DNA of 27,821 nucleotides from a virus (Duplodnaviria > Caudoviricetes). The notes under the pieces were generated by a model. That model was not told where the DNA came from, did no database searches, and saw nothing but the letters and a program-made list of their open reading frames with translations. The position numbers and the translations under genes are program-made. Where the stretch lies: the IMG/VR virus record IMGVR_UViG_3300003481_000047, positions 1 through 27,821 of that record. One strand, written 5' to 3'. Shown one piece after another: positions 1 to 15,506 of this stretch (its first letter is position 1; the number at the start of each line of letters is the position of its first letter).

Positions 1-276
1 TCAGTGAGTTGGCTCCGTTTCCGCCATCTCATTGCAGCCATCAGAATTCGCTGGTGCCCGTTTGGTGCCCGTTTCGTTTTCTCGAAATGCGCAAACCTCA
101 GCAGCGATCCATGCCTGCACCTCGCTCATCAGCCAGAGCGATCTTTTGCCGACCTTGATCTGCCTGGGGAAGGTCTTCTCCCCGATGCGGATATAGATGT
201 AGGCCCGACTGACCCCGGTCAGCTCGCACACGCGATCAATCGACAGTAGCTCTTCCAGTTTTTCAGCCGCGCTCAC
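1..276 (-). CDS. alpA: AlpA-family DNA-binding protein / probable excisionase (recombination directionality factor), 91 aa
   Basis: LLSIDRVCELTGVSRAYIY...FPRQIKVGKRSLWLMSEVQAWI is a typical AlpA pattern. GTG start at 276 has an AAGGAG Shine-Dalgarno (SD) and overlaps the RT stop by 14 bp. The longer ORF-track start (528) is rejected. Confidence 0.85.
   Translation of the reverse strand: MSAAEKLEELLSIDRVCELTGVSRAYIYIRIGEKTFPRQIKVGKRSLWLMSEVQAWIAAEVCAFRENETGTKRAPANSDGCNEMAETEPTH
52..73. repeat. Tandem 11-bp direct repeat TGGTGCCCGTT x2, candidate integrase arm-type site
   Basis: Exact repeat at 52-62 and 63-73, at the end of the excisionase gene. The function is inferred from position only. 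Confidence 0.4.
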
Positions 277-1624
277 GGCAGGCTCCTTGTGAAATGGTGA
301 TGCGCCGACCTTCGGCGCGAAGCGAGTAGCGGCGCGGGCGAGTGGCCGCCGGCAGCCAGGGGAATCGACGGATGAAACCGGCGCGCAGGCGGTGTGCATT
401 GGCATGCCGGAAATGGCCTTCATACGAGGCCCAGATCGAGCGCACGGCGCGGAAGTCATCGGGCGTTCCAGTGATCCGGCCGGCGTCGCTGTGTGCGCTC
501 TCCCAGGCCGCCGGCGCGGCGCGGGCATGCGAGACGACGCGGCGGCGCACGGTGGTGTGCGTTGGCCGCACCACGTAGCCGAGGAAGTCGATACCGGCAG
601 CCAGCGGCTGAGGGTCGGCGTCCTCCTTCAGCGACAGGCGCAGCTCGTCGGCCAGGAACTGGACGATGCGGGCCTTCCACTCCAGCAGCTGTTCGCGGCT
701 GTGGTGCACCAGCACAAAGTCGTCCACATAGCGCAGGTAGCGCAGCGCGCCCAGCGTGTGCTTGATGAACTGATCGAGCCGGTCCAGGTAGACATTGGCG
801 AAGAACTGCGACGACAGGTTTCCGATGGGGATGCCGCAGCCGGCCGGGGCGTTCTCCAGCCGCTTGTGCGGCGGCACCAGCGCCCGGTCGGTCGCCGTGG
901 CGACGTGGCGCACCCCGATCTCCAGCGGCGAGTACCGGAGCAGGGCATGCGTGGCCTTGCGCGCGATCCACGGCAACCGGCGACGCTCCATCCGCGCTTT
1001 GAGCATCCGGTACAGCGTGGGCCGGTGTATGCGGTTGAAGAAATTGGCGATGTCGAGCTGCAGGTAGTAGCCGCCGCCCTGGCCGCTATGGACCTGCCGG
1101 ACGAACGCCTGCAGCCGCCGCACCGCGGCGTGCGATCCCTTGCCGCGCCGGTTGGCGAACGAATCGGCGATGAATGTCCGCTCGTAGATGGCTTCCAGCT
1201 TCGGAATTAGCCAGTGATGTACAACCCGGTCTCCGAAATCGGGAGCGTGGATCTCCCTGGCCTTTGGCCGGGTGGCCACGAAACAGGTGGTGGGCCGGGG
1301 CGACCAGGCGCCGGCGTTGATCTGCTCCTGCAGATCCAGCAGCCGGTCGCCCCAGCGGGTGTCGAAGTCGAGTTGATTGGCGCTCGGCACCTTCTGCCGG
1401 CGCGCTGCCTTCCATGCAGCATGGAGGTCGCGCAGCGTGACCTGCTGCGCTTCCCCTGCACCCTGAAACTCACGCGCGGGACCGCGCACGGCGCGCACGC
1501 GGTTGTTGTTGTCGCGGTTGTTGATGTTGGAATTGCCATTGTCGAAGTTGACGATCCAGGCGTTGTCCCCGCGATCTTGCAACCCATCCGCGCAGGCCAG
1601 TATCGGATAGCACGGACTCGTCAT
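263..1624 (-). CDS. brt: DGR reverse transcriptase, 453 aa, with the TR translated in its N-terminus
   Basis: Motifs KAREIHAPDFGDRVVHH, YYLQLDIANFFNRI, GIPIGNLSSQFFANVYL (DGR-type SQ motif), RYVDDF and GIDFLGY. ATG at 1624 has a GGAGGT SD and an ATGA overlap with the avd stop. Confidence 0.95.
   Translation of the reverse strand: MTSPCYPILACADGLQDRGDNAWIVNFDNGNSNINNRDNNNRVRAVRGPAREFQGAGEAQQVTLRDLHAAWKAARRQKVPSANQLDFDTRWGDRLLDLQEQINAGAWSPRPTTCFVATRPKAREIHAPDFGDRVVHHWLIPKLEAIYERTFIADSFANRRGKGSHAAVRRLQAFVRQVHSGQGGGYYLQLDIANFFNRIHRPTLYRMLKARMERRRLPWIARKATHALLRYSPLEIGVRHVATATDRALVPPHKRLENAPAGCGIPIGNLSSQFFANVYLDRLDQFIKHTLGALRYLRYVDDFVLVHHSREQLLEWKARIVQFLADELRLSLKEDADPQPLAAGIDFLGYVVRPTHTTVRRRVVSHARAAPAAWESAHSDAGRITGTPDDFRAVRSIWASYEGHFRHANAHRLRAGFIRRFPWLPAATRPRRYSLRAEGRRITISQGACRERG
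1468..1568 (-). repeat. DGR template repeat (TR) with IMH*-like 3' end
   Basis: Sense strand: GAC AAC GCC TGG ATC GTC AAC TTC GAC AAT GGC AAT TCC AAC ATC AAC AAC CGC GAC AAC AAC AAC CGC GTG CGC GCC GTG CGC GGT CCC GCG CGT GAG T. It is AAC-rich and aligns without gaps to both VRs. Confidence 0.96.
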
Positions 1625-2070
1625 CGGTAGACCTCCCAGCTGGAGGTGCCGCGGGTACTCAGTTTCTCGGCACGCTGCGCACGGGCTTGGCGACCCTGCG
1701 CATTCTGGCCGGTGTTGGGGTGCGGACTGCTCTGCTGGCGATACCAGCCGCCCGCTTGCTTGCCAAGCTCGCGGGCGATCCGGGCCAGCATCTCGAACTG
1801 CGCCAGGCTCGCAAAGGCGCGAAGCTGGCTGCACAGCTGCATCCTGATCTTCAACGCGTCTACTTCCCACATGACGCGCTCGACCAGGACGAGCTGCTGC
1901 TTTCTGTCCCGCCACGCCCGATGGACCAGCACAGTGATGCCCATCGCCTGCTGTCGCAGATCCGCGCCGGCGGTGTAGCGGTGTCGGCGAGGGAAGCCGG
2001 CGACCGCCCGCTCTATTTCGAGCAGCAGGCGTTCGGCGGTCTTGGCGATGGGTGGCAGCTGGAAGGTCAT
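1621..2070 (-). CDS. avd: DGR accessory variability determinant (Avd-like four-helix-bundle protein), 149 aa
   Basis: FPRRHRYTAGADLR...ELGKQAGGWYR pattern, and its position between target and TR/RT matches the canonical DGR layout. Confidence 0.9.
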   Translation of the reverse strand: MTFQLPPIAKTAERLLLEIERAVAGFPRRHRYTAGADLRQQAMGITVLVHRAWRDRKQQLVLVERVMWEVDALKIRMQLCSQLRAFASLAQFEMLARIARELGKQAGGWYRQQSSPHPNTGQNAQGRQARAQRAEKLSTRGTSSWEVYR

Positions 2071-2101
2071 CGGCTTCGGTCAGGTCAGGCCAAGATGCAA
2101 A

Positions 2102-2530
2102 TCACTGACGCGCGGGACCGCGCACGGCGCGCACGCGGAGGCCGTAGCCGCGGCCGTAGAAGTTGGAACTGCCATTGACGAAGTGGACGAACCAGGCGTA
2201 GTCGGAGTAGCCGGTGTCATCGTCCTTCTCCTCGCTGGCGTCATCGGTCGCGGTCCAGTACCAATCCGACTGGCAGGTCGGGAAAGCCGCGGTGTCGATG
2301 GCAGGGCTGCAGCGCGAGCGGTCGGCCAGAAGGAACAGTTCCTCGACCTCCGGCAGGCGCCAGTCCGTGAAGCCGCCGAACGCCTCCGCGTTGAGCTTGG
2401 CGACGGCGGTCAGCGCGTCGGCATGGGTCATACGGCCACCGGCTACGTCGTCCTGCGTCCAGTGCAGATCGCGGGCCGGCTCGTAGACGATGCCGTCGGC
2501 ATGCTGGGTGAAACGGGATTGCTCGGTCAT
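2102..2530 (-). CDS. DGR target protein 1, DUF1566/Lcl (C-type lectin fold) protein, 142 aa
   Basis: LHWTQ...FGGFTDWRLPEVEELFLL...SPAIDTAAFP...WYWTAT...AWFVHF..G...VRAVRG. Start at ATG 2530 with a GGAGG SD. The C-terminus is encoded by VR1. Confidence 0.92.
   Translation of the reverse strand: MTEQSRFTQHADGIVYEPARDLHWTQDDVAGGRMTHADALTAVAKLNAEAFGGFTDWRLPEVEELFLLADRSRCSPAIDTAAFPTCQSDWYWTATDDASEEKDDDTGYSDYAWFVHFVNGSSNFYGRGYGLRVRAVRGPARQ
2104..2203 (-). repeat. DGR variable repeat VR1
   Basis: 2108-2203 aligns to TR 1472-1567 over 96 bp with 15 mismatches, all at TR adenines (7 A>T, 6 A>G, 2 A>C). Confidence 0.96.
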
Positions 2531-2565
2531 GATGCCCTCCAGGGCGGTGGTAGATGGAGTAGGGG

Positions 2566-2766
2566 TCACGCCATCGATGGCGTGCATTTGGCGGCCATGG
2601 CTTCGTATCGCTCAGCCTCGGCCAGATAGAACCGCACGCGTTCTTCGCGGACGGTCGGAGGAAAGTTGTAGGCAACGCGCGCTGCATCGGCTGCGACACG
2701 GTTGATCTCGGCCAGGCGCCGAGCGCGATAGCCGAAGATGTCCAGCTGCTCAGGCGCGCTGCGCAT
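2566..2766 (-). CDS. Hypothetical phage protein, 66 aa
   Basis: MRSAPEQLDIFG..., overlapping the upstream gene and tightly packed in the operon. Confidence 0.6.
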   Translation of the reverse strand: MRSAPEQLDIFGYRARRLAEINRVAADAARVAYNFPPTVREERVRFYLAEAERYEAMAAKCTPSMA

Positions 2767-2968
2767 TGCCGCGGCCCTTCGGGCTATCGGGGAGGGCGAC
2801 AAGGCGCTGCAGCAGCGCCGCGTGCTGCGGCCGGGTGAGATCGAGGGTGCTTTCGCACCCGACCGCCCTGACGTGCGCCCGATACGTTTCCTCGTCCAAG
2901 CCCTTCTGCCCGTGAGCGAGCCGGCGCAGTGCCTTCACCATGGCCGGACTGATGTTGAAGTCAGTCAT
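2750..2968 (-). CDS. Small protein resembling the N-terminal part of Mu GemA/gp16 (DUF1018-like), 72 aa
   Basis: GLDEETYRAHVRAVGCESTLDLT resembles the GemA 'glDdetYRa.L....S.kdLt' pattern, recalled from memory. Confidence 0.5.
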   Translation of the reverse strand: MTDFNISPAMVKALRRLAHGQKGLDEETYRAHVRAVGCESTLDLTRPQHAALLQRLVALPDSPKGRGNAQRA

Positions 2969-3377
2969 CGCCGGCACCTCGCGGCCCATTCGCTTCGAGC
3001 GCGGCGCGGATGACCTGGCGCCAGCGGCTCGCCGCGGAGAGGCTCATCGGCCTGAACTTGCGGATCTCCTCCGCGCTCGGCGCCCGGTCGCGGAATCGCT
3101 GGGCCAGCTGCACCGCAATCAGCATTGTCGGCACCCGGATCTCACCGCGCTTCGCATTCGGGCGCGCACCGACAGCCTGGCAAAGCTGAGCACCCTTCCA
3201 GCCGTAGCGGAGCCGGGCACGGATAGCGGCGTCCGTCACCCCGGCAACCACGGCGATCTGTGGTACAGAAAGCCGGCCGTAGCGCCCACAGTTGATCAGG
3301 ACCGGCGGCCGCCCGGTGCGCTTTCGCACCGGCTGCGCACCTATGGTCGGCGCGAGCGGTTGCAGGTTTTGGGTCAT
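2961..3377 (-). CDS. Putative HTH DNA-binding protein, 138 aa
   Basis: LSVPQIAVVAGVTDAAIRARLRYGW is HTH-like. ATGA overlap with the methyltransferase stop. Confidence 0.6.
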   Translation of the reverse strand: MTQNLQPLAPTIGAQPVRKRTGRPPVLINCGRYGRLSVPQIAVVAGVTDAAIRARLRYGWKGAQLCQAVGARPNAKRGEIRVPTMLIAVQLAQRFRDRAPSAEEIRKFRPMSLSAASRWRQVIRAALEANGPRGAGDD

Positions 3378-4792
3378 GCTGCGGCCCTCTGCAGCCAGGT
3401 ATGGGCGATCTGGATGCGCCGGCCTATCCAGTGGATCACGGGGACCGCGAAGCTGTTGCCGAGCATCTTGTAGCGCGGGCCGTCGGCCATCGGCTTGCCC
3501 TTGGCGTTCGGCACCAGCGTCCAGTCGTCGATCGCGCCCTGCAGGCGCTCACATTCGCGTGGCGTAAGCCGGCGAACCTGCGTCGGTGTGAGCAATGCTG
3601 GTGCCGGGCTGTTCGCATCCAGGCATGTCGTGCGTTCCCTGAACAGCTTTCCCGCGTTGTTGCTCGCCGTGTTGTGTAGCTTGGTCGTGTATGCGACGGC
3701 GGCATGTCCACCGCCGTGTGCCGCCCGTAGCGTTCCGGGGACCTCACCGATCGACAGGGAAGTGTCGCCGCCCGCCTTGCAGTCGAATGCGATAGCCGGC
3801 GGATGAGCGCCAGCGCAAAGCGGATGGCATGGATCGCCCAGCCTGGGGCTGCTGCCATTGGTCACCGATGTGATTTGCGTCGTGTCGAAGGGCAGCACCG
3901 GCACCAGTGGCGTGCCGCGACCGGTGCCGTCCTCGCTGGCGTCGAAGCCATCGGCGCGGAGAGTGTGGGCGACTTCGGGCAGCAGAAGGCCAGCGTATGC
4001 GTCTTGTTGGGTGGCGCTACCTGCCGCCTTGGGGTTCCTGACCAGGGTGCCAGAGACCTCTGGAATCAACTGGCCACGCTCTCCGTCCTCCGCGCCACGC
4101 TCGCCAGCGCTGCGCGTAAGGGTGCCGGCAACTCCTTCCCCCGCTTCTCGGCGCGGCGCAGAATCCCCACGCAGGCTGTCGGGCTCAAGTAGTACCGGGG
4201 GTCTATCGGCCCAGTTTCCAGTATCGAGGACAGCGAACACGCGGCGGCGCCGCTGCGCCACTCCGAACCACTGCGCGTCAAGCACGCTCCATTCGACGAG
4301 CCCGTTGTCGCCCAACGCCACGCCCTCATTCCCCCAGCCGTCCGGCGGGACATCGAGTTCGCATCCTGCGAGCGCACCAACCACGACAGCAAAGTCTCGT
4401 CCCTGGTTGCTGCTGAAGGCGCCGGGGACGTTCTCCCACACGAGCCAGCGAGCGCCGCAAAGAGTCCTTGCTGCATTGAAGATCCTCAGTTGTTCGTGAA
4501 AGAGCCCAGAGCGTGCGCCGGCCAAGCCAACGCGCTTGCCGGCCACGGACAGGTCTTGGCATGGGCTGCCGCCGATCACGACGTCAATGTGTCCGAGCGT
4601 CGCGATCTTCTCGGCGGTGATGTCGGTGACGCTGCCCAGGTTCGGGACATGCGGCAGCCGGTGCGCCAGCAGTGCGCAGGCCGCCGGTTCGATCTCGGCG
4701 ACGGCGACGCACTCCCAGCCCAGCGGCGCCCAGGCCAGATGCGCAGCCTCCATACCGGAGAACAGGGACAGGTAGCGGATCGGCTCACGCAT
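3374..4792 (-). CDS. Phage C5 cytosine DNA methyltransferase (orphan), 472 aa
   Basis: Motif I SLFSG, IV GGSPCQ, VI WENVPG, VIII QRRRRVF, IX RRLTPRECERLQG and X KMLGNS. Confidence 0.95.
   Translation of the reverse strand: MREPIRYLSLFSGMEAAHLAWAPLGWECVAVAEIEPAACALLAHRLPHVPNLGSVTDITAEKIATLGHIDVVIGGSPCQDLSVAGKRVGLAGARSGLFHEQLRIFNAARTLCGARWLVWENVPGAFSSNQGRDFAVVVGALAGCELDVPPDGWGNEGVALGDNGLVEWSVLDAQWFGVAQRRRRVFAVLDTGNWADRPPVLLEPDSLRGDSAPRREAGEGVAGTLTRSAGERGAEDGERGQLIPEVSGTLVRNPKAAGSATQQDAYAGLLLPEVAHTLRADGFDASEDGTGRGTPLVPVLPFDTTQITSVTNGSSPRLGDPCHPLCAGAHPPAIAFDCKAGGDTSLSIGEVPGTLRAAHGGGHAAVAYTTKLHNTASNNAGKLFRERTTCLDANSPAPALLTPTQVRRLTPRECERLQGAIDDWTLVPNAKGKPMADGPRYKMLGNSFAVPVIHWIGRRIQIAHTWLQRAAA
4066..4476 (-). 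CDS. Alternative-frame ORF nested inside the methyltransferase, similar to the M.EcoHK31I beta-type polypeptide, 136 aa
   Basis: CSLSSILETGPIDPRYYLSPTACVGILRRAEKRGKELPAPLRAAL reads as a real conserved protein segment. It lies in a second frame across motifs VI-VIII. Confidence 0.6.
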   Translation of the reverse strand: MQQGLFAALAGSCGRTSPAPSAATRDETLLSWLVRSQDANSMSRRTAGGMRAWRWATTGSSNGACLTRSGSEWRSGAAACSLSSILETGPIDPRYYLSPTACVGILRRAEKRGKELPAPLRAALASVARRTESVAS

Positions 4793-5042
4793 CGCTCGCC
4801 TCCTGCGGGCTGTCCGCTTCCTCTCCGCAGTCCGCGTCGCACCATGGCTCGCCGCATAACGGGCAGCCGATCTCCTCTACCAATTCCGGCGCGCAGTTGT
4901 GGCAGGCATGTTCGCCGCCATACCACCCACCGCAACCAGCCCAGCAAAAGCCTTGGCCACAGGTCTTGCAGATTCCTGCATCGCTCAGGTCCAGCGGCTC
5001 GTCGCACACGGCGCACAGTCCGATTGGCATATCACCGGCCAT
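4785..5042 (-). CDS. Small Cys-rich putative zinc-binding protein, 85 aa
   Basis: 12 Cys in CxxC/CxxxC pairs. It overlaps both neighbouring genes. Confidence 0.7.
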   Translation of the reverse strand: MAGDMPIGLCAVCDEPLDLSDAGICKTCGQGFCWAGCGGWYGGEHACHNCAPELVEEIGCPLCGEPWCDADCGEEADSPQEASDA

Positions 5043-5376
5043 CCTTCATCCCCTGCGGGCGGGCGGCGATGATCTCCAGCCGCTGCACGGTGTAAGGCTG
5101 CCTGTTCCGGTTCCCTCGGTACGTCAGTTCGGCCGCGTAGGCGGCCGGCTCAGAACTGTATAGGCCGCCGACCTGATCTCCGCCCGAGTTAATCAGCCTC
5201 CAAGCCTCGCTGACGACTTCGCGCTCAGAAGCTGCGCGCAGCGCGTCGGCGATGACACCCACTGCCGCTTCGCTCATCCGGCATACACCGGGCACCAGCG
5301 CCAGCCTGTCGCTGTAACCACGGGTCCTGTACTCCGCCGCCAGCAGTTCGCGGGCCTGCTGCATCAGGTCAGCCAT
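5032..5376 (-). CDS. Hypothetical phage protein, 114 aa
   Basis: MADLMQQARELLAAEY..., packed in the operon. Confidence 0.65.
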   Translation of the reverse strand: MADLMQQARELLAAEYRTRGYSDRLALVPGVCRMSEAAVGVIADALRAASEREVVSEAWRLINSGGDQVGGLYSSEPAAYAAELTYRGNRNRQPYTVQRLEIIAARPQGMKDGR

Positions 5377-5599
5377 GGCGCACCACCCACTTTCGGTTGT
5401 GAAGCTCTATGGCTCCCCTCTTGCGCAGTGATTGCAGCCGGCGGTCCACGATTCTGTAGCAGTCCGCTCGCTCATCGCCGAACGCGGCGACGCACGCCTC
5501 CTTAACCTTTCGATTCGGGAAGATCGCGCCAAACGTGTCGGCCCCATTTTCAATGCAGCTGACAATTGCTGCGTCGATGCTGCTGTAATCAATTGCCAT
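5369..5599 (-). CDS. Small putative winged-helix protein, 76 aa
   Basis: YRIVDRRLQSLRKRGAIELHNRKW is a helix-wing pattern. Start taken at the second ATG (5599). Confidence 0.6.
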   Translation of the reverse strand: MAIDYSSIDAAIVSCIENGADTFGAIFPNRKVKEACVAAFGDERADCYRIVDRRLQSLRKRGAIELHNRKWVVRHG

Positions 5600-5780
5600 C
5601 GGGCACCCCCGCGCCGTGGCTGTTGGCCTGCAAGTTGTCAACCTGCGCTTGCTGCTGTCCGCGCCCCATTTGGCTCAGCAGCGGCATACGCGCTGACGTG
5701 TCGTGTACGCAGCCCCAGTAGTGCTGGAAGGGCTGCCCAAGCGGACTTTCGCGTCCGCATTCGCTGCATTTTTGGCTCAC
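5589..5780 (-). CDS. Hypothetical protein with CxxC...HxxxC motif, 63 aa
   Basis: GTG start overlaps the upstream TGA (GTGA). Sequence begins MSQKCSECGRESPLGQPFQHYWGC. Confidence 0.5.
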   Translation of the reverse strand: MSQKCSECGRESPLGQPFQHYWGCVHDTSARMPLLSQMGRGQQQAQVDNLQANSHGAGVPDGN

Positions 5781-6715
5781 GGCTGCACCTCCGCATCGCC
5801 GGCCTGCGCCTTCATCGCGGCGCGAATGGCGCCCCGGATGGTGTCGTGGACGTTCCCGCGCCTCGGGGCCATCGTCTCGTGCACGACCACGCAGTGGCCG
5901 GAAATACCATCGATGGGATCGACCGACCGGTAGGCGGTGAAGCCGTTGGCGTCCATCCAGTTCAGCAGCGCCGCGTCGTCCGCCTCGCTGCCGCCCTCGG
6001 GGCTGCTCAACCCTTCGGCGCTTCCGAACTGTTCGTTCAGCGCGCCCTTGGGGCTGTCCAACCCTTCGGCGCTTCCGAACTGTTCGTTCAGCGTGGCGCC
6101 CTTGGGGCTGGCGTCGATCAGGGCCGATTCCACGTCGCGCAGGCGAACCCAAGCGCCGCGCTCAGACTTGCGCATCTCAGAGACATAAATGTCGTGTGCC
6201 AGCACGTAACGCGGAACTTTGGACAGGTCAATCCCCGGCGCTGCGGGGGTGCTGGCGTGCGCCTTGTGAAACTCGGCCGTGGTCGCGCCTGCCCATTCGG
6301 CGTAGCGCTTCGCCTCGGCGATACGCCAATCGGGCAGCGGTTCGTCCGCGCCCATGCCGAGCGCAAAGCGCAGCGGCTGGCCCACCGGCGAGCTGGCGCC
6401 CTGGTGGTGCCACAGCACCCATGCGATGGCGGCGCGGGCCGTGTCGGTGAACTCCGGCGACATTTCGGCCGGCGCTGCGGTGACGGGGGCGGCGTAGAGT
6501 GGGACGAAGCAATCGTCATCCGGCATCGCGTATGCATAGCTGCTGGCGGCTGCATCGGCATTGCCGGCCCGATGTTCGGCAAAGCGATCAAGAGCCTTGC
6601 GCGTCATCCACGCCACCGCCTCATGCGCTGAGGCGGCCGGATGCACTGGGCACGGCCAGCGCAGCGACCCGTCGCCGCTGGGGCAGGTGCACTTGTTGTT
6701 CGGCTGCATGGTCAT
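5777..6715 (-). CDS. Mosaic early phage protein with an internal tandem duplication, 312 aa
   Basis: Starts MTMQPNNKCTCPSGDGSLRWPCPVHP after an AAGGAAG SD with an ATGA overlap. Contains the modular segments AVAW..PLYAAP and LIDASPKG. Confidence 0.7.
   Translation of the reverse strand: MTMQPNNKCTCPSGDGSLRWPCPVHPAASAHEAVAWMTRKALDRFAEHRAGNADAAASSYAYAMPDDDCFVPLYAAPVTAAPAEMSPEFTDTARAAIAWVLWHHQGASSPVGQPLRFALGMGADEPLPDWRIAEAKRYAEWAGATTAEFHKAHASTPAAPGIDLSKVPRYVLAHDIYVSEMRKSERGAWVRLRDVESALIDASPKGATLNEQFGSAEGLDSPKGALNEQFGSAEGLSSPEGGSEADDAALLNWMDANGFTAYRSVDPIDGISGHCVVVHETMAPRRGNVHDTIRGAIRAAMKAQAGDAEVQP
5999..6110. repeat. About 51-bp tandem duplication encoding (SPKGA[T]LNEQFGSAEGL) x2
   Basis: CAACCCTTCGGCGCTTCCGAACTGTTCGTTCAGCG occurs at 6008 and 6059, each flanked by GGGGCTG. 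Confidence 0.9.
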
Positions 6716-7005
6716 TGGCTGGCTTCCTTCTTGCCTGGGCGATGGGTGTACCGGGCGCGGCCCGGCAGATGGGGGATGAGGAGCTTCTGGGCGGTCGGCG
6801 CGCTGTAGCGCGCAACGCGGCATGGTTTGCCGCGGCGGTTGCGGACCACGATCTCGGTTGAGTGGATGACGTAGCCGTCGCGCCGGAGGTCGTAGACGCG
6901 CGCGCTGGCGCGGGCGATGCCAAGCTCGACCAGGATCTCCATGGCGGTCATCGGCTTCTTGGAGATGGCGTCCAGGAGCAGGGCGGATTGAGCGTCGTCC
7001 GACAT
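6712..7005 (-). CDS. Winged helix-turn-helix protein, 97 aa
   Basis: MTAMEILVELGIARASARVYDLRRDGYVI. ATG at 7005 has a GAGGT SD. Confidence 0.75.
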   Translation of the reverse strand: MSDDAQSALLLDAISKKPMTAMEILVELGIARASARVYDLRRDGYVIHSTEIVVRNRRGKPCRVARYSAPTAQKLLIPHLPGRARYTHRPGKKEASQ

Positions 7006-7012
7006 GGCCACC

Positions 7013-7276
7013 TCAGAACGACAGCTGGAGCTGCGGCATGGCCGGGAAAACCCTGCGCGGCGCCCTGGGCGCGCGGCGCGCGGCCGGCTGCTGGTGCATC
7101 TGCTCCCATTCCGCCAGGGCGCGTTCGTACTCGGGATGCCGCGCGGTGTGGCTGCAGGCGCACTCGATGCCATGGCCGCCGCCTGCGGAGGCGCGGCGCA
7201 GGTCATGGATGTGGCGGGCGGCGTGGCCCTTGCTGCAGGGTGTGATCGGTTCGGGGTGGCTGATCATGCGTTGCAT
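7013..7276 (-). CDS. Hypothetical His/Cys-containing protein, weakly Lar-like, 87 aa
   Basis: PCSKGH...IECAC...ALAEW. AGGAG SD. Confidence 0.6.
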   Translation of the reverse strand: MQRMISHPEPITPCSKGHAARHIHDLRRASAGGGHGIECACSHTARHPEYERALAEWEQMHQQPAARRAPRAPRRVFPAMPQLQLSF

Positions 7277-7295
7277 GGGCTTCTCCTGGGCCGCG

Positions 7296-7820
7296 TCAGG
7301 GCGCGGCGCTGACGAACGCCAGGTCGTAGATGACGCAATGCACCCGGGCCGCCGACAGGGTTTCGGCGTTCACCACGGAGGACAGGGGGGCAACCGCAGT
7401 TGCCCGGGTGCATGCGTCGGGGGAAACGGAATAGGAGCCGCTGGTCACGGCGTCGACGGCATCGAGCGCGTCCTGCCAGCGGCGAGGGGAGAACTCCTGG
7501 GTGAGTGCCGCGCCGACGCCGGCGGCGCAGTTCGGCACGCGGTCGGCGGCGCGGAAGCCGTTCAACGCGGTGAGGGCGATGGCGGCGCGCAGGCCCCAGT
7601 CGTCGTGATCGGCCAGGTCGTAGACGGCGAGCGCGGCGCAGATCCGCGGGCTCGTCACGATCAGGTCTGCCGGGATGGCGACTTCGCCATCCACGGCGAG
7701 CACCGAGGACGAGACGGGCTCAGGGTGGACGGGAGCGGCGCAGCCGACCATGACGAGCATCAGGGAGGCGAGGAGAGCGCACCTCAGCGCTGCGATTGCA
7801 TTGGATTGCCGCGCGCCCAT
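7296..7820 (-). CDS. Putative lipoprotein with a degenerate SleB/cell-wall-hydrolase-2-like fold, 174 aa
   Basis: Hydrophobic signal with lipobox MVG-C. ICAALAVY...G..AIA...LN....P...QEFS...W..A...AT echoes the SleB family, but the catalytic Glu is absent. Confidence 0.55.
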   Translation of the reverse strand: MGARQSNAIAALRCALLASLMLVMVGCAAPVHPEPVSSSVLAVDGEVAIPADLIVTSPRICAALAVYDLADHDDWGLRAAIALTALNGFRAADRVPNCAAGVGAALTQEFSPRRWQDALDAVDAVTSGSYSVSPDACTRATAVAPLSSVVNAETLSAARVHCVIYDLAFVSAAP

Positions 7821-7823
7821 GGT

Positions 7824-8264
7824 TCAGCGCTCCAAAGAGGCCGAGGACTGACGCGCGGGACCGCGCACGGCGCGCACGCGGTTGCCGCCGCCGCGGTAGG
7901 CGATGTAGGAATAGCCATAGCCGAAGTCGACGACCCAGGCGTAGTCCTTGTCGCCGGCGTAGACCGTGGAAGTCCAGAACCAGGTGTTCGGGGTGTTCGG
8001 GAACGCGTCGGTGTCGATGGCCGGCGAGTAGCGGGTGTCGTCCACCAGCGTCAGCAGCTCGGCGCGGGTCGGCAGGCGCCAGTCGTCGTGACCGCCCAGG
8101 CGCAGCTCTGCGCAGGCCTTGACGGCATCGGCGTGCTTCATCGACTCGGCGAAGGGGCTGGCCTGCCACTCCAGCCCGGTGGTGGTGTCCAGGACGGTCT
8201 CGTGGACCGGCGGCGGGGTGGGGACGATCTTCTGGAAGCGGGGAAGCGCGGCGGTGCCGGACAT
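7824..8264 (-). CDS. DGR target protein 2, DUF1566/Lcl protein, 146 aa, first gene of the pL operon
   Basis: VLDTTTGLEWQ...LGGHDDWRLPTRAELLTLVD...SPAIDTDAFP...WFWTST...AWVVDF..G...VRAVRG. GGAGA SD. The C-terminal region is encoded by VR2. Confidence 0.93.
   Translation of the reverse strand: MSGTAALPRFQKIVPTPPPVHETVLDTTTGLEWQASPFAESMKHADAVKACAELRLGGHDDWRLPTRAELLTLVDDTRYSPAIDTDAFPNTPNTWFWTSTVYAGDKDYAWVVDFGYGYSYIAYRGGGNRVRAVRGPARQSSASLER
7847..7947 (-). repeat. DGR variable repeat VR2 (remote target)
   Basis: 7851-7946 aligns to TR 1472-1567 over 96 bp with 15 mismatches, all at TR adenines (9 A>G, 5 A>T, 1 A>C). Confidence 0.96.
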
Positions 8265-8318
8265 TTGCGGTCTCCGTGCCCCGGCCCGGGATGGGCTGGT
8301 CTTGGGGCGACGGATGCA

Positions 8319-8360
8319 AAGTTAGGACTAGCTAATTACCAAGTCAATAGGAGAGGCTAA
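8319..8360 (-). promoter_or_regulatory. pL-like promoter (TTGACT-17-TAACTT) overlapped by two 14-bp operators (8322-8335 and 8347-8360)
   Basis: -35 at 8347-8342 and -10 at 8324-8319. TTAGGACTAGCTAA is the exact reverse complement of the operator at 9319-9332. Confidence 0.85.
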
Positions 8361-8428
8361 GTTTTTCAGCGGAAGGCTGAATACTTAACTATTGATTCAG
8401 GGTATTTGAGCGTATCGGGCCAAATGAG

Positions 8429-8451
8429 AAGCCCCACCTGGGGTGGGGCTT
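8429..8451 (-). terminator. Hairpin/intrinsic terminator ending the cI operon
   Basis: Stem AAGCCCCACC / GGTGGGGCTT, downstream of the 8477-8809 gene. Confidence 0.65.
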
Positions 8452-8476
8452 GATGGGCATCACCACAAGCTGGTGG

Positions 8477-8809
8477 TCAACGCATGGAGCGCAGGAGGCC
8501 GGCATCCTCGAACGTAACCCCATCCGCAATGCACTCACGTGCTCGGTCGAGGTCTCGATGTAGCGCCAGCAGCTCGGCATCGGAAAGGTCCTCGATGGCC
8601 GCGCATCCGATGGTGGCCTGGTCCACCAATAGCTGGAAGCCAAACTGTCGGTATGCCTTGGTCAAACTGCGGATCATGCGGATGTGGCTCTGCCGCGTGA
8701 TCTCGTCCATTGGGCGAAGCGCCCCAACATCAGCCAGCGGCTTGTCAGCTGGCGGTGCGGCGCTGATCCGCTCCAGCAACTTTTCCAGCAGTGTGTCCGT
8801 TTTGCTCAT
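8477..8809 (-). CDS. Hypothetical protein co-transcribed with cI, 110 aa
   Basis: MSKTDTLLEKLLERIS..., GGGAG SD, overlaps the 3' end of cI. Confidence 0.7.
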   Translation of the reverse strand: MSKTDTLLEKLLERISAAPPADKPLADVGALRPMDEITRQSHIRMIRSLTKAYRQFGFQLLVDQATIGCAAIEDLSDAELLALHRDLDRARECIADGVTFEDAGLLRSMR

Positions 8810-9269
8810 CTCGCTCCCTGTGACTATCCCGCTTCGCCCGCCATTGAGCGAAGTCCACAAGGTTTCTTTGATCTATCGGCCTGTCGTCCTCGGAAACCCA
8901 CTCATAGACGTCCGCGAACAGGTCGGCTTCCGCCGTGAGTGAGAACTTCTTGCCGAGTGCAGCGAAGGCTCGCTCAAGGAAATCTTGGGTGGCGGAAAGG
9001 ATCGCCGGGTCAGGTCGCGCGGAGTGAGACTTAGTTGGGCCGGGTGCCTGGCGACGCTCCATGGGCCCTTGGCCGGTGGCGAGCCACTCATCCGAGACCA
9101 CCAAAGCCGCAGCTGCGCTAAGAAGGTTCTCGCCGCGGAGGAACTTCGACTTTCCGCTCAACCAGCCATGGACGCTTGGCTGGCTCACGCCGCACAGCCG
9201 CGCAAGTTCTGCTTGGGACATGCCCCGCTGAGACATAGCGAGGGAAAGGCGTTCGGCGAGAGTGCTCAT
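8745..9269 (-). CDS. cI: CI-like Xre/HTH_3 repressor with no recognisable S24 peptidase domain, 174 aa
   Basis: LAERL...MSQAELARLCGVSQPSVHGWLSG...WLATGQG. Transcribed divergently from cro. Confidence 0.88.
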   Translation of the reverse strand: MSTLAERLSLAMSQRGMSQAELARLCGVSQPSVHGWLSGKSKFLRGENLLSAAAALVVSDEWLATGQGPMERRQAPGPTKSHSARPDPAILSATQDFLERAFAALGKKFSLTAEADLFADVYEWVSEDDRPIDQRNLVDFAQWRAKRDSHRERDEQNGHTAGKVAGADQRRTAS

Positions 9270-9335
9270 TAGTTAAGCCTAATTAGGGTTGGCTTCGGAC
9301 TGGCTATTGACCACGGACTTAGCTAGTCCTAAGCT
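9269..9335. promoter_or_regulatory. oR region: three 14-bp operators at 25-bp spacing (9269-9282, 9294-9307, 9319-9332), pR (TTGACC-17-TAAGCT) and a probable leaderless pRM
   Basis: Sites TTAGTTAAGCCTAA, TTCGGACTGGCTAT and TTAGCTAGTCCTAA, consensus TTAG-N6-CTAA. pR -35 at 9307-9312 and -10 at 9330-9335. Confidence 0.85.
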
Positions 9336-9343
9336 TCGGCGCC

Positions 9344-9748
9344 ATGGACACCAAAACCCCCTCCCAGATCATCGATGCGCTCGGCGGCACTGCGACGGTC
9401 GCCAGGCTCTGCAGAGTCAAGGCTCCGTCCGTTAGCGACTGGCGGAAGAACGGAATCCCGGACGCGCGCCGGCAGTACCTGGAGCTTCTCCGGCCCGACG
9501 TATTCCAGGAGGAGGGAATCACGAAGCGCGCGCTGATGCAGCGCCTGGCACTGACCAACGACACGAGTCTTGCCGTGCTGCTGCAGTTGCCGCGCGAGAC
9601 CGTGGAGGAATGGCCGGACGACGCGACTGTCCCGGCTTCGCCGCGGTTGCAGGCGCTGCTCGCCGATGTTCCCGCCGCCGCCGCCGCCGCGTCGCAGGAA
9701 CCCGAAGACCCCGACGCCGCCCGCATCGTCCCGGTGGAGACCGCCTGA
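9344..9748 (+). CDS. cro: Cro-like regulator with a C-terminal extension, 134 aa
   Basis: IIDALGGTATVARLCRVKAPSVSDWRKNGIP..R is a Cro/YdaS-type HTH. Confidence 0.85.
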   Translation: MDTKTPSQIIDALGGTATVARLCRVKAPSVSDWRKNGIPDARRQYLELLRPDVFQEEGITKRALMQRLALTNDTSLAVLLQLPRETVEEWPDDATVPASPRLQALLADVPAAAAAASQEPEDPDAARIVPVETA

Positions 9749-9828
9749 GATGGACGTTCTCGCCGATAAGTTCCGTGTCCTGCCAGATGAAAGGCGGGAC
9801 TTCCATGTCCTCGCCGACAGGTTCCGGG

Positions 9829-10032
9829 TTACGCCGCCAGCAGGTTTTTCAGTGCAGCGAGCGTCGCGTCCCGTGTTTCCTGATCCGACTTCTGAAGGCT
9901 CGGCATGAGAAGCGCCTCCACCTTTTCTGCGAACTGCGAGTCGCGCTCCATTGCGTCCTTTGCCAGCTGCGCGACGACTGCCTGCATTGCAAACGTCGTG
10001 ACCAACAAGTGGTTTCTCAGCTCGGTCTCCAT
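9829..10032 (-). CDS. Small antisense-oriented hypothetical protein, 67 aa
   Basis: METELRNHLL... with a strong AAGGAGG SD. Predicted helical. Confidence 0.5.
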   Translation of the reverse strand: METELRNHLLVTTFAMQAVVAQLAKDAMERDSQFAEKVEALLMPSLQKSDQETRDATLAALKNLLAA

Positions 10033-10192
10033 GTCGCCCTCCTTGCGGGCTGTTCGTGTGGAAACAGCAGCGTACCGCAAGGCGGGCGGCGCCTTCTTGG
10101 CCGGGGAGGGCGCCTGAAATGTCGGTGATCTCTTCCATGGCGCCCATCGTGCGCCGCGCCTTCGCCAACAACTACGTTCACGGAGTCCAGGA

Positions 10193-10663
10193 ATGAACAT
10201 CAGCGATGCAGCCCACAAGACCGTGAAGGAATACCCGGGCGGCGCTGAGGCGTTGTCGACCCGCTTGGTGACCATCAACGAGAAGGGTGAGGAGCGGCCC
10301 ATGTCTGCCGCTGTGCTGCGCAACAAGGTCAATCCGAACAACACGACGCACCACCTGACCCTTGCGGAAGCGAGCGAGATCATGGCGCTGACGAACAATC
10401 ACCGGATTCTCCACGCCTTGGCTGCAGAGCACGGCTACGTCCTGCGTCGTGTCGAGGGTGCGCCGAGCGGCAGCGTCGTGACGGCGATCCTCGCGGTGTC
10501 GGCTCGGCAAGGGGATCTGGCGCAGGCTGTGTCCGAGTCCCTGGAAGATGGGCAAATCACGCCCAACGAAGCTATCGAGATCGGCCGGCTGTGCGCATCG
10601 ATTCAGGCGGATGCGGCGGAACTTGCGCAGCGCGCCGATCAGGCCGCCTCGAGGTCTCGCTGA
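10193..10663 (+). CDS. cII: Phage regulatory protein CII (CP76/186-type)
   Basis: YPGGAEAL...LRNKVNPN...HHLTLAEA...ILHALAAEHG. Confidence 0.8.
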   Translation: MNISDAAHKTVKEYPGGAEALSTRLVTINEKGEERPMSAAVLRNKVNPNNTTHHLTLAEASEIMALTNNHRILHALAAEHGYVLRRVEGAPSGSVVTAILAVSARQGDLAQAVSESLEDGQITPNEAIEIGRLCASIQADAAELAQRADQAASRSR

Positions 10664-10974
10664 TGGCTGCCCAGGACGCAAAGCCTAGGCAGCGGATGAT
10701 CGGCCTTGCCCGCTACACGGATCAGCAACTGCGGACAGAGCTTGATCGCCGGGCGCGCGCTGCAGGTAAGCCGGCGGCGCAGTGGGTCGGCAAGCGGTCG
10801 GAGTACCTGCGCAAGACGGCCGCCGAGTTGCAGGCACAGCTTGACGAGCTTCTGGAGGACCGTGTTCCAGCGGGGCCGATGCTGGCCGTGAAGCGCGCCC
10901 GTGTGCGCTCCCTCGAAGAGCGGATCAACAAGAACTTGCGCTTCGCCAAGTTGGCGGAAGCGGAAGGGAACTAG
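10663..10974 (+). CDS. Hypothetical coiled-coil protein, 103 aa
   Basis: TGATG coupling to cII. Begins MAAQDAKPRQ. Confidence 0.6.
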   Translation: MAAQDAKPRQRMIGLARYTDQQLRTELDRRARAAGKPAAQWVGKRSEYLRKTAAELQAQLDELLEDRVPAGPMLAVKRARVRSLEERINKNLRFAKLAEAEGN

Positions 10975-11122
10975 GCGCGCCGTCGCCACCAGAACCCCGC
11001 CCCTCTAACCGCCGGGTAGCTCCTGGCGGGACAGCCGAACTCCTGCGCGGTTGAGGGATGCGGGTATGCAGGAGGACGTAGGAGCAGAGCCATGCAGTAC
11101 ACGACATCGAGGGGGGGCTGAC

Positions 11123-12079
11123 ATGCAGGACGCACGCATTGCGACCGGGCTATCAGGCCATCCGAAAACCAAGAAGCTGATCCGCACGCTGGGCCAAGCC
11201 GCAGCGTGGAACCTGATCTGCCTCATCACCTGGGCAGCAGCGAACCGCAGCGACGGTGACCTGTCGGGGATGACGGTTGAGGATATTGAGCTTGCCGCCG
11301 ACTGGCTGGGCGACGAAGGCGTTCTCGTGGCCGAGCTGGTCCGCGTCCGCTTCCTGGACCAGACCGAGGCCGGCTACGCGCTGCACGACTGGGAGGACCA
11401 CAACCCGTGGGCCGCTGGCGCCGAAGCGCGGAGCGAGAAGTCGCGTTGGGCTGCCCTGTGCAAGCAATACGGACGCCCCGAGGCTGCTAAGAGGATGCCC
11501 GACTATGCCAAGCGCATCGGGTTTGAATACTCGTCGCAACCCGAAGGACTGCCAGAAAGTGCCAGTGGCACCCCAGTGGCAGATTCTGGGAGTGCCCCGT
11601 CTCCGTCTCCGTCTCCGTCTCCGTCTCCAGAAGAGCCTAAATCCTCGCTTCGCTCGGATTCGTCATCGGCTGCGCCGGATGACGCCCAGGCCGACGGCGG
11701 CAAGAGCGGCGACAAGGCCCAACGGCTGGCCGAGGTCACGGACGAGGCGATTGCGGCATGGAACGCCTCGCTGCTGGTCAAGCCAAACGGCGGCCTGCTG
11801 GCGGCGGTGAACCCTGCCGTAGGGCGCGAGAACCGCCGAAACCAGGTCAAACGCTGCATCGCCATCGCCCGGGACATTTGCCGGGAGCAGGGACATCGGC
11901 GCATCCCCGCCGAGTTCTGGGCGGAGTACTTCGCCGTCGCCGCACGGGACGATTTCCACGCCGGTCGCCAAGGCGGCGGGCGCGGCCACGAGAGGTGGAT
12001 GCCCGATTTCGAGTTCCTGACGCAGCCCAAGACGATGCTGAAGCTGTTCGAGCGCGTCGAGAGCGAGGAGACGGCCTGA
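11123..12079 (+). CDS. Phage replication initiator (O-like)
   Basis: HPKTKKL...NLICLITWA...DG and LHDWEDHNP in the N-terminal domain, a Ser/Pro linker, and C-terminal W.PDFEFL. Lies immediately upstream of dnaB. Confidence 0.75.
   Translation: MQDARIATGLSGHPKTKKLIRTLGQAAAWNLICLITWAAANRSDGDLSGMTVEDIELAADWLGDEGVLVAELVRVRFLDQTEAGYALHDWEDHNPWAAGAEARSEKSRWAALCKQYGRPEAAKRMPDYAKRIGFEYSSQPEGLPESASGTPVADSGSAPSPSPSPSPSPEEPKSSLRSDSSSAAPDDAQADGGKSGDKAQRLAEVTDEAIAAWNASLLVKPNGGLLAAVNPAVGRENRRNQVKRCIAIARDICREQGHRRIPAEFWAEYFAVAARDDFHAGRQGGGRGHERWMPDFEFLTQPKTMLKLFERVESEETA
11597..11626 (+). repeat. (CCGTCT) x5 hexamer repeat encoding a PSPSPSPSPS linker
   Basis: Read directly from the sequence. Confidence 0.9.
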
Positions 12080-14787: not shown

Positions 14788-14827
14788 TAAACAAAAGTGT
14801 TTACCGTTACACAAAAGTGTGTAAAAT
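14788..14827 (+). promoter_or_regulatory. hicAB promoter with two palindromic operators
   Basis: TAAACAAAAGTGTTTA (14788-14803) and TACACAAAAGTGTGTA (14808-14823). -10 TAAAAT at 14822-14827. Confidence 0.7.
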
Positions 14828-14856
14828 GGCCTCCATCGAAACAACAACGGAGGCGG

Positions 14857-15042
14857 ATGAAAACAAGCGAGTTCAGGCGGTGGTTGCAGTCCCAAGGCGT
14901 GGTGATGAAGGAAGGAGCCAATCACACCAAGCTGTACTACCAAGGGAAGCAATCGACACTGCCCCGACACGCTGCGGAGATGAGGGAAGGCACACGGAAG
15001 GCCATCATCAAGCAGCTAGGATTGGAGGAACCGCCCCGGTAA
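14857..15042 (+). CDS. hicA: HicA-family mRNA interferase toxin, 61 aa
   Basis: MKTSEFRRWLQSQG...GANHTKL...STLPRH..EMREGT.KAIIKQLGL. GGAGG SD. Confidence 0.92.
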   Translation: MKTSEFRRWLQSQGVVMKEGANHTKLYYQGKQSTLPRHAAEMREGTRKAIIKQLGLEEPPR

Positions 15043-15083
15043 GGGGCGGCGCCTTCGGCTCGCAAGTGACCATCTGATTACAC

Positions 15084-15506
15084 ATGCTGTATCCAGCAAA
15101 ACTGGCGCCGGAGGACGGCGGCTACGTGGTGACGTTCCGGGACATCCCGGAGGCGATCACGCAGGGCGACACGAGGGAGGAAGCCATTGCGATGGCGGCC
15201 GATGCCCTCGCAACGGCTATGGAGTTCTACTTCGAGGACCGCCGGCAGGTTCCGCCGCCGTCGGAGCTTCGCCGGGGTGAGGTGGGTATCTCTCTGCCGG
15301 CTGGCTTCACCGCGAAGGCGTTGCTGCTCAACGAGATGCTGGCCCAAGGCGTGACGCCTTCGGAGCTGGCCCGCAGGATGGGAACGTCGCCGCAGGTGGT
15401 GAACCGGATTGTGGATCTCGGGCATGCGACGAAGATCGACACCATCGCCGACGCGCTGCGCGCGCTGGGCGCCCGGCTGGACCTGACTGTTAGCCGCGCG
15501 GCATAG
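15084..15506 (+). CDS. hicB: HicB-family antitoxin with a C-terminal HTH, 140 aa
   Basis: YPAKL..EDGGYVVTFRDIPEAITQGDTREEAIAMAADAL, plus C-terminal SELARRMG. Confidence 0.93.
   Translation: MLYPAKLAPEDGGYVVTFRDIPEAITQGDTREEAIAMAADALATAMEFYFEDRRQVPPPSELRRGEVGISLPAGFTAKALLLNEMLAQGVTPSELARRMGTSPQVVNRIVDLGHATKIDTIADALRALGARLDLTVSRAA

Follow-up and report, generated by a model that had tools for sequence, protein, structure and literature searches.

The stretch of DNA analysed here, referred to as the window, comprises 27,821 nucleotides and represents most of a lambdoid prophage, in which a cro-like gene, a cII-like gene, replication genes, a Q-like gene and the lysis, head and tail genes follow one another rightward. 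The same element lies within a 326-kb contig, with non-phage DNA beyond the excisionase-like gene at the left end of the window, and among named organisms its closest relatives occur in Stenotrophomonas nitritireducens and S. acidaminiphila. A HicA/HicB-like toxin-antitoxin pair (14797–15506, plus strand) is encoded between the Q-like gene and the lysis genes. The control region, from the first leftward gene to the first rightward one, is composed of the following features.

7824–8264, minus strand: target 2, a 146-aa stand-alone Lcl_C protein (DUF1566, CLec2-type; Pfam E 2e-34)
8273–8314, minus strand: 5' leader stem-loop, which takes in three of the first gene's four Shine-Dalgarno bases (-22.7 kcal/mol)
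8319–8347, minus strand: pL-like promoter TTGACT-17-TAACTT, from sequence and a family-trained matrix; relatives exchange exactly this stretch together with their immunity region
8322–8335, unstranded: operator OL1, TTAGGACTAGCTAA, an exact inverted copy of OR1, overlapping the pL spacer and -10
8347–8360, unstranded: operator OL2, with one mismatch, 25 bp from OL1 and touching the -35
8429–8451, minus strand: 10-bp hairpin downstream of the repressor operon, its U tail modest (-17 kcal/mol; not called by the scanner)
8477–8809, minus strand: 110-aa ORF (PHROG 27415), overlapping the repressor gene
8745–9269, minus strand: CI-like HTH repressor of 174 aa without a peptidase S24 domain, its start codon abutting OR3
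9269–9335, unstranded: OR3 (9269–9282), OR2 (9294–9307, two mismatches) and OR1 (9319–9332) with pR, from the sequence pattern
9344–9748, plus strand: cro-like gene, from profile matches

The sequence-only reading had placed a promoter about 55 bp before target 2, overlapped by an operator which is the exact reverse complement of that over pR. Both statements hold: the -35 (TTGACT, 8347–8342) and the -10 (TAACTT, 8324–8319), separated by a 17-nt spacer, lie 54 nt 5' of the ATG at 8264, target 2 is indeed the first ORF behind them, and the site at 8322–8335 is repeated in inverted form at 9319–9332. The promoter carries 8 of 12 consensus bases and was missing from the list of a generic sigma-70 scanner, so a matrix trained on the phage family was built, in which pL is the top site with 19.7 bits. 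Since the training set includes pL, this score is partly circular, as it is for pL sites in general, and only the negative results of the matrix inside the arm were used. The motif TTAG-N6-CTAA, with one mismatch at most, occurs four times in 27.8 kb (8322, 8347, 9269 and 9319), always in the two control regions, compared with a mean of 0.94 in shuffled sequences, none of 100 reaching four; the sites stand at 25 bp spacing, with a further two-mismatch site at 9294. On the other side, pR (TTGACC-17-TAAGCT, 9307–9335, plus strand) has its -10 overlapped by OR1.

Moreover, operator and repressor change together across the relatives, while leader and target stay. When seven immunity types were compared, the pL regions matched their own pR best (13–27 vs 5–13, the own score of 13 in locus L068 tying with one foreign score), which argues for phage operators rather than a host motif. 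A host LexA box was rejected as the operator, since the sites change with each phage repressor; the Xylella-type LexA motif presumably also has a different spacing. Operators which lie over the promoter, match those between cI and cro, and vary with the repressor are those of a lambdoid pL/OL region. By analogy with lambda, the repressor would almost certainly bind the TTAG-N6-CTAA sites and close both pL and pR, and its control of target 2 is very likely. The RecA-triggered autoprotease domain is absent from the repressor of the window, which has the HTH only, and an S24 domain is present in 15 of the 21 repressors found in relatives. In the window the protease-less repressor is followed by the overlapping 110-aa ORF (8477–9269, minus strand), the PHROG 27415 ORF being a candidate partner for induction; a similar two-gene arrangement was observed in L002. 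A -10-like hexamer stands 6 nt upstream of the repressor start codon that abuts OR3 (9260–9290, minus strand), and suggests a leaderless repressor transcript, as in lambda. At the other end of the repressor operon, the hairpin at 8429–8451 would shield the pL arm from read-through.

As regards the leader, in 14 sequences (the window and 13 relatives) 93% of the cells are paired and two-sided changes occur in 5 of 10 pairs, none of 500 shuffles being as high. Since the stem-loop pairs with the Shine-Dalgarno sequence and covaries, translation of the first gene may be further controlled, and the structure is also present where other genes occupy the first slot. A longer, multi-stem leader type was observed in L083, L090, L099, L103, L108, L113 and L117. 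Neither the window nor the leaders of five loci matched any Rfam family. The first gene of the lambda pL operon is N, and the hypervariable protein had been described as occupying this immediate-early slot; the position is confirmed, but the protein is not N-like, having a C-type lectin fold. An N-like/nut-site reading was in fact rejected, in view of the folded lectin domain, which is not an arginine-rich RNA-binding protein, and of the leader without an Rfam match.

The structural model of target 2 (pLDDT 90) has as its top PDB fold match 8q4e, the C-terminal domain of Legionella Lcl (E 6e-5), and also matches C-type lectins, with viral tail or structural proteins among its fold neighbours. 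The C-type lectin fold with a C-terminal VR that characterizes CLec2/Lcl_C targets is thus present. Inspection by eye revealed no signal or membrane stretch in target 2, and neither target matched the PADLOC families. Further along the arm lie the second gene, a second target and the DGR core.

1–276, minus strand: AlpA/excisionase-like gene, last of the arm; host DNA lies beyond it in L078
263–1624, minus strand: DGR reverse transcriptase (RT), an open frame with RVT_1 and a YVDD motif (PHROG 1423, E 4e-93)
1472–1566, minus strand: template repeat (TR) with 25 adenines, lying in frame near the 5' end of the RT ORF
1621–2070, minus strand: avd (Pfam bAvd; PHROG 3206, E 2e-16; NF033474, E 1e-11), the Pfam and NCBIfam matches being below cut-offs
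2102–2530, minus strand: target 1, a 142-aa stand-alone Lcl_C protein, its start chosen by the Shine-Dalgarno sequence, with an in-frame ATG also at 2587
2108–2202, minus strand: VR1, 15 of 15 mismatches at TR adenines
7296–7820, minus strand: predicted lipoprotein, the second gene, resembling Hydrolase_2 cell-wall hydrolases; it is the first gene in four relatives, with the same first codons
7851–7945, minus strand: VR2, with a GC-rich 3' homing end, 15 of 15 mismatches at TR adenines

The presence of RT, avd, adenine-only TR/VR pairs and a shared homing end identifies a DGR, and target 2 is a true DGR target. Each VR differs from TR at 15 positions over 95 nt, all of them template adenines, and the homing end consists of 31 bases identical in TR and both VRs, with divergence afterwards. 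The TR has 14 variable codons, equivalent to about 1e14 protein variants. No strong hairpin of the BPP-1 downstream type follows either VR, and the homing end itself contains a short GC hairpin. As for the genes around these elements, the lipoprotein has two alternative N-termini, depending on whether target 2 stands in front of it or not, and apparently lacks the catalytic glutamate; an early gene of 312 aa contains a 51-nt tandem duplication (5992–6093), a DNA methyltransferase is also encoded in the pL arm, and an integrase is absent from the excisionase-like end of the prophage (window 1–276; L078 1566–1980).

The comparison between strains points to ongoing or recent diversification. In fact, comparison of VR2 with that of three relatives gave 51 differences in all, 50 of them at TR adenines, while the remaining gene differs at 3–14 of 319 bases. 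Two runs, X15 and X17 (probably DNA), contain a near-identical phage with one difference in 1501 bp over RT and part of TR, 16 differences in a 1728-bp contig (listed at 2145–2219, 14 at TR adenines) and 11 listed differences in VR2, every one at a TR adenine; the immunity region of this phage is replaced from exactly 8320. In the RNA runs X19 and X20, only 5–6% of the words were present. The X1 and X5 contigs display no VR variation, and such contigs drop rare variants and so cannot show them; unbroken contigs were consequently rejected as a proof of silence in the lysogen, as were the identical VRs of L052, L053, L078, L080 and L081, which may reflect one strain or one source of data. One of these loci, L081, has the VR2 of the window with TR-like bases past the homing end and a next gene 60 nt shorter, the end of its target 2 being due either to an extended cDNA transfer or to an assembly chimera. 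The whole S. nitritireducens assembly contains only three copies of the homing end, and therefore no third (tail) target.

The sequence-only reading had described the genes from 8264 to 1 as co-oriented and free of obvious terminators, a description borne out by the 17 ORFs picked, which all lie on the minus strand, are separated by -53 to +34 nt (a 52-aa ORF at 5638–5796 is uncertain) and lead from target 2 through avd, TR and RT, 6–8 kb downstream, to the AlpA/excisionase-like gene. The scanner found no minus-strand terminator in 1–12000, and a looser hairpin scan gave only irregular structures, nearly all intragenic, with weak ones followed by U-rich tracts at the ends of both VRs. Regarding internal promoters, the family matrix detected between 8264 and 1 a single site above 9 bits and none of 11 or more, a yield no higher than in resampled sequence. 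Judging from the gene packing and this lack of internal promoters, avd, the TR RNA and RT are probably carried on the pL transcript, and repressor control of the core is likely; the core would then be made after infection or derepression and, briefly, also during the establishment of a new lysogen.

A different arrangement, in which only target 2 obeys pL and the avd-TR-RT core has a promoter of its own (weak, activator-dependent or served by another sigma factor), would allow mutagenesis also in the lysogen or upon another cue. The distance from pL to the core, the lack of any recognised N-like antiterminator for a transcript of 8.3 kb and the weak hairpins and U tracts after each VR would agree with it, as would the promoter-like matches of at least 12 bits found before 5 of 45 avd genes in relatives and the diversification of hankyphage lysogen cultures without inducer, reported in the accessible part of PMC12135933. 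Nevertheless, the best sites before target 1 and avd in the window reach only 0.7 and 3.7 bits, the gaps there are 35 and 31 nt, and none of the 65 avd-adjacent targets is preceded by a promoter of 12 bits or more. Furthermore, the hexamers of the relatives, which are absent in the window, lie in the VR end and the stop codon, recur after remote targets and have TAA swapped for TGA as in a stop codon. Being most likely just VR end plus stop codon, they were rejected as promoters, although in that subclade they have to be kept in mind. Overall, an independent core promoter is considered improbable.

With the core on the pL transcript, the sequence of events would be as follows. In the lysogen, the repressor would keep pL and pR closed, by analogy with lambda; on infection or derepression, pL would express target 2 first and, if the transcript reads on, target 1, Avd, the TR RNA, RT and the excisionase-like protein. 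The first position of target 2 had been proposed to tie mutagenesis to the lysis-lysogeny switch, an argument that loses its force since, in a reconstituted DGR, transcription of the target mattered only mildly (PMC12875486, in the sections available). The gate would hence be expression of the core, the first slot providing an early and strong supply of the product. Likewise, diversification "at each induction" was too narrow a formulation, because infection, too, activates pL. In the reconstituted DGR, editing was 7.6- to 24.6-fold more efficient when the target was directed away from the origin (PMC12875486); both targets of the window are directed away from the replication genes, and would by extension have the favoured orientation if the origin lies there. 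The origin has been placed by analogy, the replication gene showing no iterons and only a hexamer repeat that encodes a Ser-Pro run. A variant generated during lytic growth would be produced as soon as the next cell is infected, and could become fixed in new lysogens.

The occupation of the first slot was followed across related phages. A search with 24 nt of the leader gave 16 loci, 13 of them distinct once two copies of the window and one duplicate were removed. Behind the same leader and near-identical first codons, these relatives encode target 2 (4 loci), the lipoprotein (4), a 70-aa ORF (4) or a 109-aa ORF (1), so that in 9 of the 13 the leader feeds one of three other ORFs, four of these nine having the repressor type of the window without target 2. 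The first slot is thus a cassette, filled by other genes in close relatives that lack target 2, yet one in which lectin targets are favoured. For a wider survey, 96 homologues were aligned and used as the query; out of 213 viral matches 80 were retained, representing 70 loci, or 63 after duplicates (L087, L088, L119, L124, L137) and window copies (L052, L053) were removed; the genome loci L002, L144 and L145 were left out of the 63, and L094 was taken off the first-slot list because of an intervening ORF start. An Lcl_C gene stands directly behind pL/OL in 22 of the 63 viral loci (14 identified by automatic matching of OL to OR, 8 by visual inspection), a share inflated by the seeding with relatives of target 2 and by the retention of 80 of 213 matches, and occupies the second position in three more. 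Including the window, the first-slot loci comprise 21 repressor groups among the 22 repressors found. In a quick tree built without the VR, the first-slot proteins cluster apart from the avd-adjacent ones (SH-aLRT 87), and two first-slot subclades (SH-aLRT 98 and 99) match two TR lineages.

Where both avd and RT are present (38 loci), all 81 Lcl_C copies correspond to a TR with adenine-biased changes, and 75 of the 81 have no non-adenine change in their best 84-nt window. A repressor upstream or an integrase/excisionase downstream was matched in 26 of 34 viral cores. An apparently strict co-occurrence of target 2 and core, perfect among the closest relatives, did not hold up in the larger sample and had to be abandoned. 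Out of 16 viral cores whose repressor was identified, 9 are without a first-slot target, so a core can work without one. Conversely, the 23 first-slot loci (window included) have an RT in 10 cases, avd only in one and no core in four (at least 10 kb or the end of the arm being present), while eight are cut short. Among proviruses rated 100% complete and bearing a first-slot gene, G007 and G009 have no RT and G006 a short C-terminal remnant; G008 and G010 also lack an intact RT, and G003 (97% complete) has one homing-end copy only. The maintenance of the first-slot gene after RT loss indicates that its product is kept without ongoing mutation. As a separate observation, in L002 (13799–13984), G006 and G010 only the C-terminal end of RT is left, with the targets still open and, in L002, TR also gone, which looks like a recurring route of DGR shut-off. 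Another side observation concerns Haboob, a cultured P. aeruginosa phage (L223, 6955–13101), where two Lcl_C-like targets, avd and RT lie a few genes after cI in the leftward arm. The feature is general within a lineage of temperate phages.

It could be argued that the position is incidental, the slot being an insertion hot spot and the targets a small DGR family tolerated in early arms with little selected function. Four different ORFs on the same leader and first codons, the decay of cores with loss of TR and RT, and the many cores without a first-slot target are all compatible with this. Such indifference is hard to reconcile, however, with a slot kept over 21 repressor groups, in both TR lineages and behind three or more types of leader, and also in the distant phage Magia (RT 41% identical), nor would it be expected that first-slot genes remain open frames once RT is lost and that the fold core is conserved in the 96 homologues. 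An incidental placement is therefore regarded as quite improbable.

Another explanation would make the targets small receptor-binding or decoration proteins, produced early and ending on the virion or released at lysis, so that the DGR would serve tropism switching. The usual adhesins of DGRs have C-type lectin folds, the fold neighbours include Lcl as well as viral tail or structural proteins, and the Magia paper suggests a change of host range (PMC7883833). Yet the proteins of the window are single domains of 142–146 aa that lack an anchor or stalk. Their genes belong to the early arm, at a distance of over 10 kb from the head and tail genes, which lie behind the Q-like gene. Early transcripts are, moreover, normally shut off before assembly. 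A virion role is accordingly judged highly improbable. Given that no anchor or export signal was seen, the targets are likely cytoplasmic binders, and the recurrence of the layout in many related phages makes it likely that the varied protein acts inside the cell just after infection rather than as a tail fibre.

The reading we favour, with moderate confidence, is that target 2 is an adenine-hypermutated lectin gene placed first behind a pL-like promoter, which the repressor is predicted to silence, likely together with the whole arm down to RT, and that new variants would originate in lytic replication and be tried in the next host, likely as intracellular binders of defence or rival-phage proteins. 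That the binding partner is a target of counter-defence or of phage competition is a guess, with chances somewhat below even. In its broadest form the proposal is more doubtful still: a widespread temperate lineage would keep a DGR-diversified intracellular binder as its very first product of infection. The phage would thereby own an adaptive repertoire of some 1e14 variants, which the repressor-controlled DGR would renew whenever the phage grows lytically, and on which the defence proteins or resident prophages of the following host would exert selection.

The interest of the system lies in that phage DGRs have been read almost wholly as host-range switches acting on tail proteins, while the only targets found in the window are two small non-tail proteins of the early arm, one of them held in the first-expressed slot across some 20 immunity types. 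The function of the varied proteins is the most interesting part: should they bind defence or rival-phage proteins, phages would carry a mutating counter-defence repertoire, whose partners could be fished directly. The layout also makes it testable when, in the temperate life cycle, a DGR switches on, and the arrangement is carried by the cultured lysogen S. nitritireducens DSM 12575, whose copy is the closest one in culture and has a repressor of the cleavable type, as well as by the cultured phages Magia and Haboob.

Among known systems, the Burkholderia phage Magia (genes 57 and 47; PMC7883833) shares with the window short lectin-fold targets. One of them, gene 57, opens the co-oriented series behind an OL/pL-like site; the avd-RT core comes about 6 kb later and in turn precedes the integrase. 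Gene 57 is Lcl_C-like and has 15 adenine-only differences from its own TR. The present analysis also found differences, since Magia has an RT 41% identical, a leader of about 400 nt, a weak Lcl_C score and three targets. That paper named the targets and did not mention their early position or repressor control. Coupling of DGR activity to a repressor is already known from the hankyphage, where, according to the available part of PMC12135933, silencing of the CI-like RepCHP raised DGR activity in virions (7.93-fold vs 3.32-fold over background). As described there, the hankyphage is like the window in having a CI-like repressor, which there keeps phage genes silent, and unlike it in being Mu-like, with a tail-fibre target and no stand-alone early target.

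The CLec2/DUF1566 class was delineated by Wu et al. (PMC5758913), whose accessible text states that about half of the category-d targets are lone DUF1566 domains and that, in DGRs linked to phages, an adjacent target is often accompanied by a non-adjacent one, and includes a Stenotrophomonas SKA14 entry without a stem-loop after the VR, an example also displayed by MyDGR (PMC6602519, in its available part). As far as that text goes, these DGRs were given no link to immunity regions or early operons, and its supplement holds no Xanthomonas or Lysobacter entries. Most viral targets are tail proteins according to the available text of Roux et al. (PMC8144416), and the part of PMC10612066 at hand describes a tail-targeting DGR. 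In gut prophages, a second, distal VR near counter-defence genes has been read as a phage-host arms race, as the accessible portion of PMC12629997 puts it; those DGRs mainly target tail proteins, whereas in the window both targets are non-tail and one comes first behind pL. In the open literature, exclusive of preprint supplements, no paper was found that states the placement of a non-tail DGR target in an early operon; the supplementary lists of PMC8144416 and PMC12629997 may contain such cases.

The regulatory frame itself is close to that of lambda, with divergent cI/cro genes, operators spaced 25 bp over both promoters and a leftward arm ending in an excisionase-like gene, and departs from it in that the first gene encodes a lectin fold instead of an antiterminator, the repressor has no autoprotease and no integrase is found at the end of the arm. 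Within this frame, as far as its sequence tells, the system of the window is a DGR, and a variant one in its targets and in their placement.
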